DNA of 64,000 nt, from the NCBI GenBank assembly GCA_011364985.1, contig RDOC01000003.1:158061-222060 (forward strand), in the 5' to 3' direction. Below are positions 18,795-30,756 of this stretch, one piece after another. Made by a program: the position numbers and the translations under genes. This DNA comes from Candidatus Thorarchaeota archaeon (GTDB lineage Archaea; Asgardarchaeota; Thorarchaeia; Thorarchaeales; Thorarchaeaceae). The stretch's first letter is position 1. The number at the start of each line of letters is the position of its first letter. The notes beneath the pieces are model-generated. The model was not told the DNA's origin and did no database searches. It saw nothing but the letters and a program-made list of their open reading frames with translations.

Positions 18795-18938
18795 TACAAT
18801 GAATCACCCAATAAATAACAGGCCATCCATGCTCATTAACGTTGATATTCACGTACCTTAGCATATCTTGATTCCTAGAGATTTGGTTTCGAGCTAAACA
18901 GCAACGTTAATATTCGAACATGCGACCTCAGCGGAACA

Positions 18939-19017
18939 GCCGCCGTAGCTCAGCCGGTAGAATCCTGTTTCCTTAGGGAACAGCATGTCGAAGATGACAG
19001 CCTGTCAAGTTGTTGGT
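18939..19017 (+). pseudogene. Truncated tRNA-Asn-derived pseudogene (anticodon GTC) with one BHB intron at 22/23 (18961-18992); T-arm and acceptor 3' strand absent
   Basis: GCCGCCGTAGCTCAGCCGGTAG|intron|GATG ACAGC CTGTCAA GTTGT TGGT matches the spliced 5' part of the 29245-29469 tRNA; upstream promoter also homologous. Confidence 0.75.
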
Positions 19018-20838: not shown

Positions 20839-21007
20839 ACCTCCGATTGTTTACATTTCTGTGTCCGAAAGAAACTCAAATTGGAAACCCCATACCTGAA
20901 TTTCATCTGCCACGATAAGGTAAACAAACACAAATGATACCATAGCATGTATTTATACCCTTTGATACTTATTTCATATTACTGTCATAGTGTTTCGTGA
21001 CTCGAAA

Positions 21008-21235
21008 GATGAGAAGAAGATTGCTGAGAGCCTAGGCTTCCAAATAACGCTTGCACCAACAGCTGTGAAGTACTTCCCAAGAACCGAGAGAGTATCTGTG
21101 AATTGGGTTGCCATAACTACAACAAAGGAAGATGCAGAACGCTGGGCTGACATCTGACCTCCAAATGATAAGCGAAAACGAGATGCTGTAGAGTTCTGGC
21201 TTAGAGAAGGAGCTGAGAAATGGCTTGATTCCTGA
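21008..21235 (+). pseudogene. Relic C-terminus of a paralog of the LAGLIDADG-like protein at 26593-28653
   Basis: Frame 2 reads DEKKIAESLG..P..VKYFPRTERVSVNWVA..DI*PPNDKRKR versus DEIRIVRKLG..P..IRYHERSGRVSVAWTA..APSNDVIKR; internal TGA at 21155-21157. Confidence 0.75.
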
Positions 21236-21241
21236 AAGAAG

Positions 21242-21260
21242 TAGGAAGCGCCACCGGGAG
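21242..21260 (+). repeat. att-like direct repeat, distal copy of tRNA-Asn 3' end
   Basis: TAGGAAGCGCCACCGGGAG, identical to 29238-29256. Confidence 0.85.
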
Positions 21261-21331
21261 AACTTGCTTCGGAACTATTATATGAACAAGAACAGAAATC
21301 GACTTGTTGGCGGGTTAGTTTCACACAAAAG

Positions 21332-23874: not shown

Positions 23875-26592
23875 TTGCAATTGTTTGGGCCATGGAAAGG
23901 AGAAGAATTAGTAGGAGCTCTAGAAGTGCTGGAGATTCCTGAAACATACATGTTGCAATCAGATTCGGGGAGTCAGCACCGTTCGTACGGCAAGTCATTC
24001 ATAAGTATTTTACGAGGAATGATTCTAGCCAAAACGCCTGTAGCTCTACGTCTTGAACGAACTCACGGGAAGACTCGAGTACTGCTCTTGACATGGGCAA
24101 GAAACCAAGAAGATCTGCAAAGGTTTCTGGACTCACTCTCCTCGAACTTAGTAGCTCATCTTCCCAAGTTCAAACTGAAGCGGCATGAGTTATTCCAAGG
24201 ATTTTCATCTCATCCAAACATCCAAGGCATTAATGCCTGTCTAGTGGGCGAGCCAGAAATCACAGAGGAAAAAGATGATTCGCCAAAACCAATGGATGTT
24301 GTTGGAGAGTGCATCCAGAACCTCTCAAATGCAATCCTTCAGGTCTTTGTCACTCCCACTAAAACCAATCGTGGCAAAGTGAGAGGTTTGGAACGCGCCT
24401 ATGAACGGGCGATGGAACAGTCACAGCAGGTAGTTTCCGCTGCCAGCATGTTCTCGCCAGACATTCAACAGTCCACCACACGGGTTAGTGCTAGTGCTTC
24501 ACGTGATGCTGAACGTCTTTCCAGACAGATCAAACGAATGAGTAGCCGTTACTTGGGAAAAGTGTCAGTTGTTGCGACCTGCTGGCACCAAGATAAGAGA
24601 GTTGCAGAAACAGAGGCCCGACGACTGCTGTCCGTTCTCATGAGTAGCGTCACCCCTGCTGACAAGGAAGAAGACCTTCGAGTTGAGATTAAGAAGAAGG
24701 CCAAAGACTTTGAGAAGGCTCTGGCTGGAAGACCCATTGGGAAAGAAACCATTCTTGTCCCTGAGGAGATAGTCAACTACTTCACACTCCCACGTGTAGA
24801 CATGGGAATCAAGGTGTCACGTCGAGAGGACTTCTCTACGGCGGGTATTGACCTAACGAAACTTGAGAACAATGAGAATGTGCCTCAGCCCAGTATCAGC
24901 CCGGCCCCTATGTCAGACTGGAAACCTAGGACAGCAACAAGATGGTCACCCGCAGAGGATGATACCATATGGAGATTCCCCCTTGAGAAGCTCCTTCTTC
25001 TTGGCTATGCAATTCGGAACAATGCACCTCAGAAACAGGAGCCCTATGGTCTTGTTCCACGAATTCTGGGCTCCCACGTCGGCATCTATGGGAACACCGG
25101 CTACGGCAAGACCACCACCGCCGTCACGCTCATTGCTCAGGCCTACAGGAACAATGTCATCCCAATCATTCTCACTCCCGGAAACGTTGACGACTGGCGA
25201 GTCCTTAGGGACCTCTACGATGAGTTTCGTATCTTTACTGCCGGAAATCCCGATGTGGCACCCCTGCGATACAACATGTGGAATGTCCCGGACGGTGTCC
25301 CCATTGGCAAGTACATCGATAGGATGGTGGACGTCCACACCGCTGCTCTCCCAACAGACGGCGTCATCTCCATGCACTTTGACGATGTCTTCAACACTAT
25401 GTACGAGAACTGTGGCTGGTCACGCATGGGGAACGTCCGAGGTCGTCCCATCCTGCTCTCGGACCTGTATGAGGCCGTACATGAGGTTGCGGACACTCAC
25501 CTGAAGTACGGCGATGAGATGCGCAGGGACTTTCATGGTGCACTCGATGCGCGCCTTCGCAGCATTCTCAGAAACGACATTCTGGTGGACATGTTCAACA
25601 CGCCCAGTGGGCTCACGATTCCCGAACTCCTCTCTCACCCGACCATCATTGAGACCCGTGACCTCTCTCCTGAAGACCGGGCGTTGCTTACTGGCGCCCT
25701 TACGGTGGGCATCAGCGAGTACCTCATTGCGAATCCGCGGAAGACGGTCAGTCATCTACTGGTCATTGAGGAGGCCCATCACTTCCTCAAGCGTCCACGA
25801 ATGGCTGGAGGCTACGCTGAGCCCACCTCCCAGCAGAAGGCCACGGAGAACATCACTGAGATGCTACGGACTCAACGCGGGACCGGTCTAGGCCTTATGC
25901 TCATCGACCAACTTCCCAGCAGTCTTCCTCTGGACATTGTCAAGCTCCCCAGCAGTGTCATCATTCACACACTGACCGACGTGGAGGAGCGTACTCTGGT
26001 TGGCAGGCAAGCCCTGTGTAACGACGCGCAGATCGAGCACATTGGCGGCATGGGTATCGGGGAGATCGTGGCACGAGTGCAGACGCAGACCGTTCCGTCT
26101 AACGTGCAGGTGGTGCCGCTGGATTATGTACTCACGCAGCCTCTGCCCAAGCGCCCTTGGACCGATGCGATGATCAGGAGTGCGATGCGGCCGGTCTTCG
26201 AGGGCAATCCTCACCTCGACGAGAGTCATCCGCTCTCTGGGGAGCTTCGGGGCGCCCTGAAGGGCATCTCGGCGCCGGCACGTATGGAACTTCGCCCCGA
26301 GGCACAACTGGTCAGCCTGTCCAGCAGGCAGGAAACCGACATCTCGGAGATCGTCAACACGCCCGCCTTTGTCGATGCTTACTTGGACCGTGTGGGGCTG
26401 GCGTCGCAGGGTGACCCCGCTGCTGTGGCTCGGTTGCTGACGGTGGTGGCCGGGAAGTTCTGCTCGGATGGGGTGCAGGTGGTTCCCTTCGCTGAGCGCC
26501 TTCTTCTGCATGCGGCAGGGATGCTTCAGGAGCCTCGAGAGACCGCCGTTCTTGGGGGGATTCTTCTGGCAATCAGGGGTACTAGTGTGTGA
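23875..26592 (+). CDS. HerA/VirB4/FtsK-like P-loop ATPase
   Basis: Walker A GNTGYGKT, Walker B LLVIEEAH, R..GLGLMLIDQLPS. Confidence 0.85.
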   Translation: MQLFGPWKGEELVGALEVLEIPETYMLQSDSGSQHRSYGKSFISILRGMILAKTPVALRLERTHGKTRVLLLTWARNQEDLQRFLDSLSSNLVAHLPKFKLKRHELFQGFSSHPNIQGINACLVGEPEITEEKDDSPKPMDVVGECIQNLSNAILQVFVTPTKTNRGKVRGLERAYERAMEQSQQVVSAASMFSPDIQQSTTRVSASASRDAERLSRQIKRMSSRYLGKVSVVATCWHQDKRVAETEARRLLSVLMSSVTPADKEEDLRVEIKKKAKDFEKALAGRPIGKETILVPEEIVNYFTLPRVDMGIKVSRREDFSTAGIDLTKLENNENVPQPSISPAPMSDWKPRTATRWSPAEDDTIWRFPLEKLLLLGYAIRNNAPQKQEPYGLVPRILGSHVGIYGNTGYGKTTTAVTLIAQAYRNNVIPIILTPGNVDDWRVLRDLYDEFRIFTAGNPDVAPLRYNMWNVPDGVPIGKYIDRMVDVHTAALPTDGVISMHFDDVFNTMYENCGWSRMGNVRGRPILLSDLYEAVHEVADTHLKYGDEMRRDFHGALDARLRSILRNDILVDMFNTPSGLTIPELLSHPTIIETRDLSPEDRALLTGALTVGISEYLIANPRKTVSHLLVIEEAHHFLKRPRMAGGYAEPTSQQKATENITEMLRTQRGTGLGLMLIDQLPSSLPLDIVKLPSSVIIHTLTDVEERTLVGRQALCNDAQIEHIGGMGIGEIVARVQTQTVPSNVQVVPLDYVLTQPLPKRPWTDAMIRSAMRPVFEGNPHLDESHPLSGELRGALKGISAPARMELRPEAQLVSLSSRQETDISEIVNTPAFVDAYLDRVGLASQGDPAAVARLLTVVAGKFCSDGVQVVPFAERLLLHAAGMLQEPRETAVLGGILLAIRGTSV

Positions 26593-28653
26593 GTGGTTCG
26601 CATGGCGGGACGTATCGAGAGCAGGGGCCGCGGTGAGAGGTCTGAGATACGGGATGCTGGCAGTGATGTGCGGGAGCTTCGGGAGGTACGGGACGCGGAG
26701 GAGGTTCAGGTTGAAACCGGGGAGGATGAGCATGCCGTTGAGCGGATTGAGCGGAGCGATGCGCAGGAACCCGTGGAGCGGAGGGTCGTTGATGCGATTC
26801 AGGAACTGGATGCTGAGGAAGGGCGTGAGAGCGACACGCGGAAACGGATTGCTGGTGCCCTCAGGGAGCTGGAGGAGATAGAGGGCGGGTCCGTCAGGGA
26901 CAGGGTCGAGCGGGCAGTTGCGGAGGTCAAGGAGGAAGTTGAGAAACCGGACATTCCTCCTGAGAAGGACTTTGAGGATGCAAGAGAGGTAGTAGAGAGA
27001 GCCAAGGAGGTTGAAGAGGCAAACGTAGAGGCCAAGGAGGAAGAGAGTAGGGTATCAGAGTCGTCACCCAGAGAGGCGTTTGAGGATTCATCAGAACAAC
27101 GGGCGGAGGGGGAGAAGCGCAAGGGGCTTGAGAGGGTTCCCGATGAACAGGTGCGCGAAACCTTCTCGGAGTTGGAATCGAAGGAGGGTGAACCACGAAG
27201 CTGGGCTTCGGAGGAGATTGCAGAAGGGCTGAAGCGGCTCGCTCCGGAAGACGCAGAGGTTTCTCGGGTCTATTGTGCAGACATTCGAGAGGGATTGGGC
27301 CTGACGCCGGAGGAGGTCGAGTCCTTCACGAATGAGTTTCAGCAGGCGAAGGAGGCACTTGAGGCAGAGGGGGAGGTTCGATGTGGCATGGTGGATGAGA
27401 AGGTCTACATTTGGAGGCCAGACTTGGACCCAACCCAGCTTGAGAATGCTTATGGCAATCTCTACTACTATTTCCGTGATGAAGAAGCATTTGAGAAGTA
27501 TATCTGGGATATTGCGTGTCCTCTGGGAATTGAGGGGGATGATGAGAAGCAGAACATTGAACATCTTCAGAAGCTAGCCTCTCAGATGTTGACTGAGCCT
27601 ACGAGTGAATACTGCGTGAATCCTAGACTCAATCGTATTCGTGGAGATCATGTCCATTTTTTTAATAATTTGTCTGGAAAGACACTGTCTGAGTTGGAAG
27701 GTGAGATTTCAAAGATCACTAAGAAGGGTGGTCGAGGAGGAATTAGGAATCCGAGGTTTCCTGAAGGCGAGGAGTTGGAGATTGCATTGGCTCGCCTTAC
27801 TGCTGTCGCTGTCAGCGATTGCCACCTGAAAGCAAATGGAACCCTTGAGTATGCTGAGGGGGAGATAAGTCGGATACGTATAGTTGAGAGAGATCTTCAG
27901 GTGTTTGGAGATATTAGAATGAATCCAAAGTTAAAAGAGAGAGAGAATTTCTATGAAGTCTTCTTGCCTTCTCCATTCGGAATCGTGTTATTACACCTAG
28001 GAATACCTTCAGGTGACCGGACGGTCCAGAATCCAGGGCTTTATCCGGAACTTAGGGAGTTCTCAGTAAAGGCCCAGTGTGGATTTATTGAGAATCTAAT
28101 CCCTCAAGATGGAACCATTAGCAGAAAGAATGTTCAGTGGACTCACTCAAACGCCCTACATGCAGGCGATAAAACAGAAATCTATGGAATCGAGCCCAAA
28201 GTGGGGCGCAAAGAAATCAATTTGATAATTGAAGAGGGGAAGAGAGAGAAACACAGTTGGGTACTTAATTACGGAAAACTGGAAGAGCTTAGACAATCTG
28301 ATTCAGATAATCTTAGACATATTGCAGACAGTCTATGGAACATTGTTTATGAAAATCCCAACCGACTAGTTGAGGATGAGATAAGAATTGTTAGAAAGTT
28401 GGGTGTAAATTATAATGCAAAACCATACACAATCCGATATCATGAGAGGAGTGGGCGGGTTTCTGTTGCTTGGACAGCAGAACCAGAGAGTGTTCTTGAA
28501 TCAATCAAGCTAGCGATGATTGCCCCTTCTAATGATGTAATTAAAAGACAGATCATGAGGGATTTGATTGCAAATCATCCTAAATACATGAGAAGAGCAC
28601 TTCGGCAATTCGAAAAGAACGGTATAGAGGTTTATCAGTGGTGGACATCATGA
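26593..28653 (+). CDS. Acidic E/R-rich N-terminus fused to a two-motif LAGLIDADG-like endonuclease domain
   Basis: LARLTAVAVSDCHL and FIENLIPQDGTI at the spacing of DOD-type LAGLIDADG motifs; abuts the ATPase stop (alternative start ATG 26602). Confidence 0.65.
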   Translation: MVRMAGRIESRGRGERSEIRDAGSDVRELREVRDAEEVQVETGEDEHAVERIERSDAQEPVERRVVDAIQELDAEEGRESDTRKRIAGALRELEEIEGGSVRDRVERAVAEVKEEVEKPDIPPEKDFEDAREVVERAKEVEEANVEAKEEESRVSESSPREAFEDSSEQRAEGEKRKGLERVPDEQVRETFSELESKEGEPRSWASEEIAEGLKRLAPEDAEVSRVYCADIREGLGLTPEEVESFTNEFQQAKEALEAEGEVRCGMVDEKVYIWRPDLDPTQLENAYGNLYYYFRDEEAFEKYIWDIACPLGIEGDDEKQNIEHLQKLASQMLTEPTSEYCVNPRLNRIRGDHVHFFNNLSGKTLSELEGEISKITKKGGRGGIRNPRFPEGEELEIALARLTAVAVSDCHLKANGTLEYAEGEISRIRIVERDLQVFGDIRMNPKLKERENFYEVFLPSPFGIVLLHLGIPSGDRTVQNPGLYPELREFSVKAQCGFIENLIPQDGTISRKNVQWTHSNALHAGDKTEIYGIEPKVGRKEINLIIEEGKREKHSWVLNYGKLEELRQSDSDNLRHIADSLWNIVYENPNRLVEDEIRIVRKLGVNYNAKPYTIRYHERSGRVSVAWTAEPESVLESIKLAMIAPSNDVIKRQIMRDLIANHPKYMRRALRQFEKNGIEVYQWWTS

Positions 28654-29240
28654 ATATGAATGAGATGATACAAAAAGCTGCTGGGATTGTTACAAACATA
28701 CTTGCAAGGATTGAATCACGGCAATTGCCCCTGAAAGATGTGAAGATTAGAGTGAGTGAGAAACTGGAGGGGGCAGACGATATTAATGCGACTGTGGATA
28801 AAGCAATAGAGTGGGCACTAGATAATTGGATAGTGGATAAGGTCTTGGACTATGATGAGGATGACGAGGAATTTGCTGGAGAGCTAGTATGGTTCCTACG
28901 TGCAACAACAGAAGAAGAAGCCGAGTATCTAGGTCGCTTGTCGAAAGCAGAGCATGCTCTACTAAATATCCTGAGAAATGCTGAAAACGAAAGCAGACTA
29001 GGAGTAATTCGGGCAAATGAAGCTCTTCAGAGATTGCGTAAACTAGGGTTTGATTTAAAGTCTGCACCATCTATTATTGGAAAGACAAGTAGTTTCTTCA
29101 GGCCGGAGAATGGAAAGCTGATTGAGTTCAAATATCTACTTTCTGAAGAAGAGAAATCTGAGGAGTATGTAACAGCTCTGAAAGAACTTGATGAGAAAGA
29201 ACGCAGGAAACAAGAACGTTTGGATAGGATGAATGAATAG
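28638..29240 (+). CDS. Hypothetical acidic protein, translationally coupled to the LAGLIDADG-like gene; stop codon lies inside the att repeat
   Basis: ATGA overlap at 28650-28653; TAG at 29238-29240. Confidence 0.7.
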   Translation: MVDIMNMNEMIQKAAGIVTNILARIESRQLPLKDVKIRVSEKLEGADDINATVDKAIEWALDNWIVDKVLDYDEDDEEFAGELVWFLRATTEEEAEYLGRLSKAEHALLNILRNAENESRLGVIRANEALQRLRKLGFDLKSAPSIIGKTSSFFRPENGKLIEFKYLLSEEEKSEEYVTALKELDEKERRKQERLDRMNE

Positions 29241-29256
29241 GAAGCGCCACCGGGAG
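29238..29256 (+). repeat. att-like direct repeat, tRNA-proximal copy
   Basis: TAGGAAGCGCCACCGGGAG. Confidence 0.85.
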
Positions 29257-29469
29257 GATCATCGATCGCTCCGGAAATCGAAGCGAAGCTCGAACCTCCG
29301 ACCATTCGTCGCACACCACGGAATGTGATGCACTACAACTGTCTGGCTCTCAACCAGCCGGCTGAAAGATAACAGGCTTTAGCGGCATGGCGCAGTACGC
29401 GTCCACTGCTGTCGCTTTCGATGTAAGGCTCCCTTGGGAACCTCACCCTACCGACTGAGCCACGGTGGC
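29245..29469 (-). tRNA. tRNA-Asn(GTT) interrupted by five BHB introns (22/23, 28/29, 37/38, 43/44, 59/60)
   Basis: Exons 29469-29448, 29416-29411, 29378-29370, 29340-29335, 29304-29289, 29258-29245 join to a 73-nt cloverleaf GCCACCG TG GCTC AGTCGGTA GAGC G ACAGC CTGTTAA GTTGT TGGTC GGAGG TTCGAGT CCTCC CGGTGGC G. Confidence 0.88.
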
Positions 29470-29494: not shown

Positions 29495-29510
29495 AATATT
29501 AACATTGCTG
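29495..29510 (-). promoter_or_regulatory. Putative BRE/TATA-like promoter of the tRNA-Asn gene
   Basis: CAGCAATGTTAATATT ending about 25 nt upstream; CAGCAACGTTAATATT at the same place upstream of the 18939 copy. Confidence 0.6.
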
Positions 29511-29579
29511 TTGAGGTTCGCAACCAATGACATATCTGAGAAGATAACCAGAGAGTAGAGAGGACTCATGAGAGCCAAC

Positions 29580-29865: not shown

Positions 29866-30756
29866 ATGGATGATTCGGGTTTGAGTTTCGAAGAACGTAA
29901 TGAGGCCCTAGATAAGGGAGTGGAATATCTCCGACACGTAACACTGGTGATTTTAGCAGCTTGCGGAGCATTCTGGACAGCCACAAGAGCAGATGAAGCT
30001 GCTTTTCCTTGGATAATCATGGTTTACGGCGGCGCCATTTCTTTTACTCCAGATAGAAGAAGGAGATTCCTTAGTACTGCCAAGAGAAGATTTATTCGCC
30101 TTGACGGCTAGTTGCAAGTAGATTGGGTGGAGAGGAGAAGAATTCCAAAGGAATACTATCGAGATAGTAAGAGTGAAGAAATAGAACGGATGATTAGAAG
30201 AGATCCCCACTACAAAGATTGGATTGTGATGCGTTTTCGCTCCTCGGGCGGATTATCAGATTATGAAGACATGCTTGAGATTCAAAATGCGAAAGGGAAA
30301 AGTGTCACAGAATTATCAGAGTCAGAAGTTGACCTCTTGATCTCATCTGGAACCTTGTTTTTTGTACTTGAAAATTGTCAGAGAATGGGATTTTTCAGAA
30401 GATTCGGTTCTCGTACACCTTATGTCATACTCCTTGTACTATTTGCAGGTATGATCTTTGCCTTTGTTGTAGGGACTGTTTTCTTTGAATACATCAGGAC
30501 GCTACCAGCTGAGCAAGGATTGCTCGGATTCATTCTCTTCTTCGCGGTACTCTTCTGCTTTGCAGGAATCCTATGTTTTTCACAAAGAAACAATCATAGA
30601 CGAGAGCAGGAAGCTGATTTTGCTAGAAGTAAGCAGGAGCCTATCTCAGACGAGTTACTTGATGATATTCTTGATAAAACAGAGAAGCTTGCAGATTTGA
30701 AACAAAACGATCCATCAGAATACATCCATAGGTTGAGAGAACTGGCTGATGACTAG
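29866..30756 (+). pseudogene. Membrane protein split by a single in-frame TAG (30109-30111)
   Basis: ORFs 29866-30111 and 30112-30756 are contiguous in the same frame. Confidence 0.6.

Follow-up and report, generated by a model that had tools for sequence, protein, structure and literature searches.

Introns interrupt 92-95% of the tRNA genes of Atabeyarchaeia and Freyarchaeia (PMC11291895), tRNAs with four introns are found there (PMC11291895 (2024), Supplementary Data 4), and for three Asgard families a recent preprint raises the number to as many as five per gene, Thorarchaeia not being named in its main text (bioRxiv 10.64898/2026.10.13.758758). The same preprint treats the route by which tRNA introns arrived in Asgard genomes as the central open problem, finds no general route and leaves the splicing of its newly found sequences unshown. 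Elsewhere, the tRNAs of Cyanidioschyzon merolae carry up to three introns, which are processed in a constrained order (PMC3728597), an intron has been proposed to act as protection against further invasion in the case of Caldiarchaeum subterraneum (PMC3293823), and the SegB nuclease of T4-like phages acts in a tRNA gene region (PMC2988022). Here we analyse a window of 64,000 nucleotides (the whole stretch of DNA under study) from a 74%-complete genome of Thorarchaeia (Asgard), in which a tRNA-Asn(GTT) gene carries five introns. Since four- and five-intron Asgard tRNAs have already been reported, this number alone is not new; the initial annotation, which had taken three introns as the known maximum and five as exceptional, is overtaken on both points, and it had itself conceded that such reports would remove the novelty. 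What remains new is the genomic context, which that annotation left unused, namely a nuclease module beside the gene and a broken resident allele.

We confirm that the minus-strand segment 29469-29245 is a real five-intron tRNA-Asn(GTT) gene of the bulge-helix-bulge (BHB) type, made of six exons of 22, 6, 9, 6, 16 and 14 nt and introns of 31, 32, 29, 30 and 30 nt, with the following features:

29495-29512, minus strand: BRE/TATA-like promoter motif, conserved upstream of the examined Asn alleles and remnants
29448-29469, minus strand: exon 1 (tRNA positions 1-22)
29417-29447, minus strand: intron 22/23, 31 nt, strict BHB
29411-29416, minus strand: exon 2 (23-28), 6 nt
29379-29410, minus strand: intron 28/29, 32 nt, central helix 4/4; 88% like the intron of genome G010
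29370-29378, minus strand: exon 3 (29-37), carrying the anticodon GTT
29341-29369, minus strand: intron 37/38, 29 nt, central helix 3/4; identical to the intron of genome G071 (another genus)
29335-29340, minus strand: exon 4 (38-43), 6 nt
29305-29334, minus strand: intron 43/44, 30 nt, relaxed BHB; of a sequence family common to the 50/51 intron of relatives
29289-29304, minus strand: exon 5 (44-59)
29259-29288, minus strand: intron 59/60, 30 nt, relaxed BHB, interrupting the T-loop; candidate for the protective intron
29245-29258, minus strand: exon 6 (60-73), CCA not encoded

The exons join to a 73-mer with all stems paired (7/7, 4/4, 5/5 and 5/5), which ARAGORN calls as tRNA-Asn(gtt), the identity first assigned. 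For the junctions we relied on a spliced tRNA finder written for this analysis, combining a position profile, BHB-scored intron jumps and stem pairing. Run over the whole window with no coordinates supplied, it returned the identical five junctions with a score of 68.9, whereas 60 dinucleotide-shuffled versions of the locus scored no higher than 7.9 and DNA simulated with a Markov model (1.2 Mb) no higher than 17.8. All exon and intron coordinates and lengths proposed in the initial annotation are correct. Intronless orthologues in four relatives provide an independent fix of the junctions, the one in G006 scoring 70.4 bits with RF00005 and differing from the joined 73-mer at 3 positions. The six exons follow one another in cis, in their normal sequence, within 225 nt, and the gene is therefore neither split nor permuted. 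As had been foreseen, the genomic copy is missed by standard tools, both by ARAGORN, with the intron option on or off, and by Rfam cmscan. That such genes explain 'missing' tRNAs also holds for this genome, in which ARAGORN without the intron option recovered 18 tRNA genes, Rfam 27 and the spliced search 41, a measure of how many tRNAs may be overlooked in genomes of this kind.

The 41 genes contain about 46 introns (none in 15 genes, one in 13, two in nine, three in two, four in tRNA-Tyr and five in tRNA-Asn; three finder parses were corrected by hand for these counts), and with a genome mean of only about 1.1 introns per tRNA gene the Asn gene is an outlier. Neither the spliced search nor Rfam found a further Asn gene in the 74%-complete genome, in which Asn represents 3.6% of the residues of long ORFs; at this completeness a second Asn gene could sit in unassembled DNA, and tRNA-Cys, tRNA-Lys(CTT), tRNA-Ala(TGC) and probably the initiator were likewise not found. 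The tRNA introns are uniform genome-wide, 42 of 43 measuring 26-33 nt and 19 exactly 30 nt, typically with a 9-bp stem and a short loop; the finder mildly favours introns of 24-45 nt, and a motif-free parse of the Asn alleles likewise gives a median of 30. No cross-isotype intron family reaches 80% identity in this genome (the best pair, at 0.74, lies within one gene), one cross-gene pair at 0.7 or above was observed where a structure-preserving null gives 0.9, and copying of introns between isotypes was rejected as not exceeding that null at 0.65-0.7 identity. The four introns of tRNA-Tyr(GTA) (C15:169402-169595, plus strand) stand at 22/23, 37/38, 56/57 and 59/60 and leave one exon of 3 nt; the same mature sequence is found in 12 relatives with zero to two introns. 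The ~60-nt introns at 37/38 of tRNA-Trp and tRNA-Met (C15:43935-44067 and C15:147347-147512) may be C/D-box guide introns, and ARAGORN places a tRNA-Sec at C11:352835-352925 (minus strand).

A survey of 87 genomes of the class, of the kind that had been proposed for multi-intron genes, retrieved 61 intact Asn genes, the five-intron gene included, with no introns in 4, one in 5, two in 18, three in 16, four in 15 and five in 3. The two other five-intron alleles belong to G087, with introns at positions identical to those of this gene, and G073, in which the 50/51 intron replaces that at 59/60; no allele among the 61 has six. The relatives sharing the intron pattern are Thorarchaeota, and the known range of five-intron tRNA genes now includes Thorarchaeia. 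Exons are nearly invariant and introns occur only at 22/23, 28/29, 37/38, 43/44, 50/51 and 59/60, so that the 61 alleles constitute a natural series of zero to five introns over six positions. The introns at 50/51 and 59/60 never occur together (0 against 5.9 expected in the 61 alleles). Compared across genomes, 50/51 introns resemble those at 43/44 with a mean identity of 0.65 and a maximum of 0.83, other pairs of positions giving 0.39-0.51, which suggests that the 50/51 intron arose from the 43/44 intron by copying to a site seven bases further on in the gene. CCA is not encoded in 7 of the 10 alleles with a 50/51 intron. At most intron stem positions several different standard pair types occur among the alleles, and one exon base of the D-loop covaries with the intron base opposite it (16 of 24 Watson-Crick, permutation p 0.0007, kinship not corrected); both patterns point to selection for splicing. 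Intron identity within a genus exceeds that between genera at every position, the pattern of introns at 37 and 50 recurs in four genera, and the nearest match of each intron of this gene lies in a different genome. Introns of tRNA-Tyr match across genera too, and therefore exchange or mosaicism is not confined to the Asn locus. In run X1, which may be the source sample, contigs of low depth from other organisms have Asn alleles that differ from this one, one of them without the 43/44 intron and with an apparent insert at 50/51 (window 29335-29416); a pattern scan of metagenomes gave one chance match and two loci without a complete gene.

The gene stands between fragments of another Asn allele, and part of its own 3' end is repeated 8 kb away:

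18899-19017, plus strand: promoter and 5' remnant (positions 1-47) of the resident one-intron Asn allele, with its intron at 18961-18992
30027-30037, plus strand: orphan 3' end (positions 66-76, CCA included) that matches the acceptor stem of the 18939 remnant
21242-21260, minus strand: direct repeat matching 29238-29256 over all 19 nt (from tRNA position 62), immediately following the relic of an earlier LAGLIDADG gene

The 18939 remnant had been taken for a copy of the five-intron allele, whereas it is the degenerate 5' part of a one-intron allele resembling that of G008, to which it is much closer than to the five-intron gene (alignment score 177 against 89); its single intron is at 22/23, its D-stem is mutated and its anticodon has changed to GTC. 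Readings of it as a tRNA-Asp or as one half of a trans-spliced tRNA were rejected on account of the mutated D-stem and of an intact Asp gene on C15. The remnant follows a ZIP transporter gene, which is the place and orientation of the intact gene in many relatives, its acceptor stem pairs with the 30027 orphan 3' end and not with that of the five-intron gene, and the sequence downstream of the orphan can be aligned to that following the intact G016 gene. The two fragments are therefore the ends of one allele, from which positions 48-65 (the T-arm) are missing, and the five-intron gene sits inverted between them with its own promoter. From this arrangement, the five-intron gene seems to have taken the place of a resident copy that is now broken. 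G089 shows the inverted layout too, with two remnants, G075 and G078 contain matching fragments, and 5' remnants occur in about 9 of 62 genomes; in G016 remnant and intact gene are almost identical in promoter and exon 1. Of 32 orphan 3' ends, 22 have position 62 as their first base, at a distance of two bases from the 59/60 site. The relic of the earlier LAGLIDADG C-terminus (window 21005-21240, plus strand) ends at the 21242-21260 repeat, and the minus-strand ORF at 20974-21324 is an antisense shadow of this relic. In G013 (C41), G089 (C10) and G071 (C60), arrays of small genes are split by tRNA-Asn 3'-end repeats from position 62 onward, in both orientations and with up to four repeats per locus.

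Three coupled genes point toward the 3' end of the five-intron gene:

23875-26592, plus strand: 905-aa HerA/VirB4-like (DUF87) ATPase
26593-28653, plus strand: 686-aa protein with an acidic N-terminus and a two-motif LAGLIDADG-fold domain
28638-29240, plus strand: 200-aa module ORF, its stop codon within the 3'-end repeat

Sequence searches of Pfam, PHROGs, NCBIfam and PDB gave no match for the 686-aa protein, for which Atlas provided a LAGLIDADG lead. A model of its C-terminal 413 residues (pLDDT 91.6) matches the TliVMA intein endonuclease best (Z 15.1, rmsd 3.0, 195 aligned), followed by PI-PfuI (14.0) and I-Tsp061I (13.2), and Foldseek agrees; as modelled, the protein has a two-domain LAGLIDADG fold. 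An acidic residue follows each LAGLIDADG helix, and D409 and D506, assigned from the motif rather than by structural superposition, are invariant in 26 of 26 homologues; no longer homologues were found, which is weak evidence. The family occurs in 52 of the 87 genomes, often in several copies, and 35 of 89 examined loci face the 3' end of a tRNA gene, of nine types (Asn 11, Ala 6, Met 5, Phe 5, Lys 3 and others). Only 3 of these 35 tRNA genes are intronless, and for two of them the adjoining nuclease gene contains an internal stop. Of the 23 Asn genes beside the nuclease, 22 carry an intron in the T-arm, as against 21 of the 33 others (Fisher 0.008, within-genus permutation 0.02), an association that is post hoc, having been noticed before testing, with five positions tested and genomes that are kin; the single exception, in G094, adjoins a nuclease carrying a stop. 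A degenerate second LAGLIDADG gene copy with internal stops lies at C15:40100-41123 (minus strand), about 3 kb from tRNA-Trp, and 13 of 19 genomes of a second Asgard family (f12) also contain this LAGLIDADG family, with only 1 of 20 loci near tRNA genes. Our literature search found no paper linking Thorarchaeota, mobile elements and LAGLIDADG.

How the gene came to carry five introns can be read in several ways. The leading one, to which we would give slightly less than an even chance, is that the adjacent LAGLIDADG protein homes, cutting the intron-free T-arm, and that repair imports both the module and an intron-protected tRNA allele. The predicted target would be the T-arm DNA, pseudo-palindromic in sequence, of tRNA-Asn alleles that lack an intron there. 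Incoming DNA, for whose delivery the ATPase of the module may be responsible, would serve as the template for repair, and the module would thereby arrive together with a promoter-bearing tRNA allele, the T-arm intron of which would block further cutting while the remaining introns hitch-hiked by co-conversion. On this account the five-intron gene would be the incoming allele, the 18939 and 30027 fragments the two ends of the broken resident, and its composition the outcome of repeated cutting of the locus by the neighbouring nuclease, in the course of which alleles were replaced and introns shuffled. Homing is favoured by the fold and its two invariant aspartates, the 35 of 89 family loci that face a tRNA 3' end, the excess of T-arm introns with its one stop-bearing exception, the loss of the stretch 48-65 from the resident, the clustering of orphan ends at position 62, the recurrence of the inverted layout in G089 with fragments in G075 and G078, the scattered nearest matches of the introns and the lack of a detectable tyrosine integrase. 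It is weakened, besides the post hoc character of the association and the kinship of the genomes, by a similar though weaker trend for the 37/38 intron (p 0.036), by Ala, Asp and some Lys and Phe genes that adjoin the nuclease and have no T-arm intron, by a mean intron number beside the module that is not significantly higher than elsewhere (3.0 against 2.6, p 0.21) and by the Tyr introns, whose matches across genera make mosaicism a feature not specific to this locus. Moreover, WhiA shows that a LAGLIDADG fold can be non-catalytic.

The gene and the remains around it could also have arisen at a tRNA hotspot through conventional integration and inversion driven by an integrase, on the lines of the Caldiarchaeum model, with the LAGLIDADG module as cargo and with elements bearing partial tRNA attachment sites swapping tRNA segments, introns included. 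We consider this somewhat unlikely, yet the exact 19-nt direct repeats of the tRNA 3' end that bound the 8 kb adjoining the gene are those looked for in a pNOB8/SSV-type element, a 5' fragment beside an intron-richer allele has a described precedent (PMC3293823), and the near identity of promoter and exon 1 between remnant and intact gene in G016 fits as well. On the other hand, no family match to a tyrosine integrase was obtained among the ORFs between the repeats, nor was PF00589 (Phage_integrase) found in this 74%-complete genome; the repeats are short and start at position 62, remnant and intact gene point in opposite directions, and the T-arm association is not something that integration would predict. 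Gain and loss of introns in place by vertical descent, the remnants being decayed local duplicates and the module incidental, is unlikely: the closer intron identity within genera speaks for it, as do the repeated gains with no mobile-element signal described for other Asgard classes (bioRxiv 10.64898/2026.10.13.758758), but the remnant is much nearer to the allele of G008 than to this gene and pairs its acceptor stem with the orphan instead of this gene's 3' end, and a 37/38 intron identical in another genus and a 37+50 pattern spread over four genera are difficult to accommodate. Returning to homing, a generalization can be ventured, more tentatively still: in Thorarchaeia a free-standing LAGLIDADG nuclease module may target tRNA-Asn genes in their T-arm DNA, a 30-nt BHB intron at 50/51 or 59/60 may protect the allele that carries it, and repair of the cut may transfer entire intron-bearing alleles from lineage to lineage in the style of collaborative homing, with the five-intron gene as one product.

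Whatever its origin, the gene has to be judged as a substrate for splicing. A strict or relaxed BHB motif is present at every junction, as initially claimed, with central helices of 4/4, 4/4, 3/4, 3/4 and 3/4 in introns 1 to 5: intron 1 has an exon helix of 2 bp and a full intron helix, intron 2 a weaker intron helix, and the relaxed introns 3, 4 and 5 each an intron helix. This geometry is conserved and covarying in relatives, among which the relaxed form is the norm, for example in 45 of 48 introns at 37/38. Shifting intron 5 by one base to 58/59, tried by hand, lost most central-helix pairs and was rejected. Since each upstream exon has at least 6 nt, enough for the central helix plus two bulge bases, every central helix is formable in the unspliced precursor, and the sequence does not demand an obligatory splicing order; exons 2 and 4 are nevertheless common to neighbouring motifs, so that introns 1/2 and 3/4 compete and are not fully foldable together. 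To judge from these competing motifs, the introns should be removed stepwise. ViennaRNA folding of all 31 splicing states gave low central-helix probabilities and no reliable order.

The host encodes two EndA paralogues, with genes on C11 and C15, one of 188 aa, closest to the alpha subunit of Aeropyrum pernix (3P1Z/3AJV, E 1.6e-46), and one of 213 aa that fits a beta subunit. It also encodes RtcB (E 6e-179) and a CCA-adding enzyme. The 188-aa paralogue aligns with the A. pernix enzyme through its specificity-linked loop, which we take to be the broad-specificity loop of crenarchaeal enzymes; by these homologies, a predicted broad-specificity EndA and an RNA ligase are encoded by the host. Transcription from the archaeal promoter of the gene would yield a precursor of about 225 nt, the (alpha-beta)2 EndA would cut the five strict or relaxed motifs, RtcB would join the six exons and the CCA enzyme would complete the 3' end. 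While the anatomy is observed, we infer transcription, splicing and its order, and hold it very probable that the locus yields a functional tRNA-Asn(GTT) by such stepwise EndA/RtcB splicing, notwithstanding the mismatch in three of the five central helices and the low nearest-neighbour folding probabilities; no RNA run was listed among those containing the stretch and two metatranscriptome assemblies from the same study do not cover the gene, which weighs neither way. The opposite view, that the locus is a pseudogene or unspliceable relic with the working Asn gene in unassembled DNA, is very unlikely, for although the genome is 74% complete, CCA is not encoded and three motifs are relaxed, the 73 exon bases and the promoter show no disabling change whereas the neighbouring remnant has decayed, CCA is not encoded in 12 of the 61 intact alleles either, and relaxed geometry is usual in relatives.

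Taken together, the five-intron tRNA-Asn gene is real and probably functional. Its intron number equals the highest reported without exceeding it, and the gene offers a compact substrate for the study of ordered multi-intron splicing with 6-nt exons. The locus offers a concrete, testable candidate route for intron spread, with one nuclease and one predicted target, the intron-free T-arm; if true, collaborative homing would spread, shuffle and stack protein-spliced tRNA introns.

This locus shares with the tRNA genes of Atabeyarchaeia, Freyarchaeia and Jordiarchaeia several non-canonical BHB introns, their being missed by annotators and a two-subunit EndA (PMC11291895; bioRxiv 10.64898/2026.10.13.758758). 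Thorarchaeia are nonetheless a different class, this genome has about 1.1 introns per tRNA gene in place of 2.2, its introns are uniformly ~30 nt long against a median of 22-23, and the gene adjoins a nuclease module whereas the preprint found no link to mobile elements. BHB introns at scattered positions are also known from Thermoproteales and C. merolae (PMC3728597), with three introns where we find five, and the cross-isotype intron families quantified for Thermoproteales in the preprint have no counterpart here at 80% identity or above. Closer in layout is the tRNA-Thr(GGU) of C. subterraneum, in which a 5' fragment lies beside an intron-richer intact allele with a mobile element between them (PMC3293823); that element has a recombinase and a direct repeat, while the present locus yielded no integrase, has its remnant in inverted orientation and includes a module that codes for a LAGLIDADG-fold protein and an ATPase. 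Finally, the free-standing nuclease genes SegB and MobE of T4-like phages adjoin their target region, as the module does (PMC2988022). Those enzymes are of the GIY-YIG or HNH type and belong to phages, whereas here a predicted LAGLIDADG protein, its gene coupled to that of a HerA/VirB4-like ATPase, is encoded in a cellular archaeal chromosome, beside BHB introns of the protein-spliced kind; by analogy with the collaborative homing of T4-like phages, it is tempting to propose that the module would spread its flanking DNA, including the intron at the cut site.
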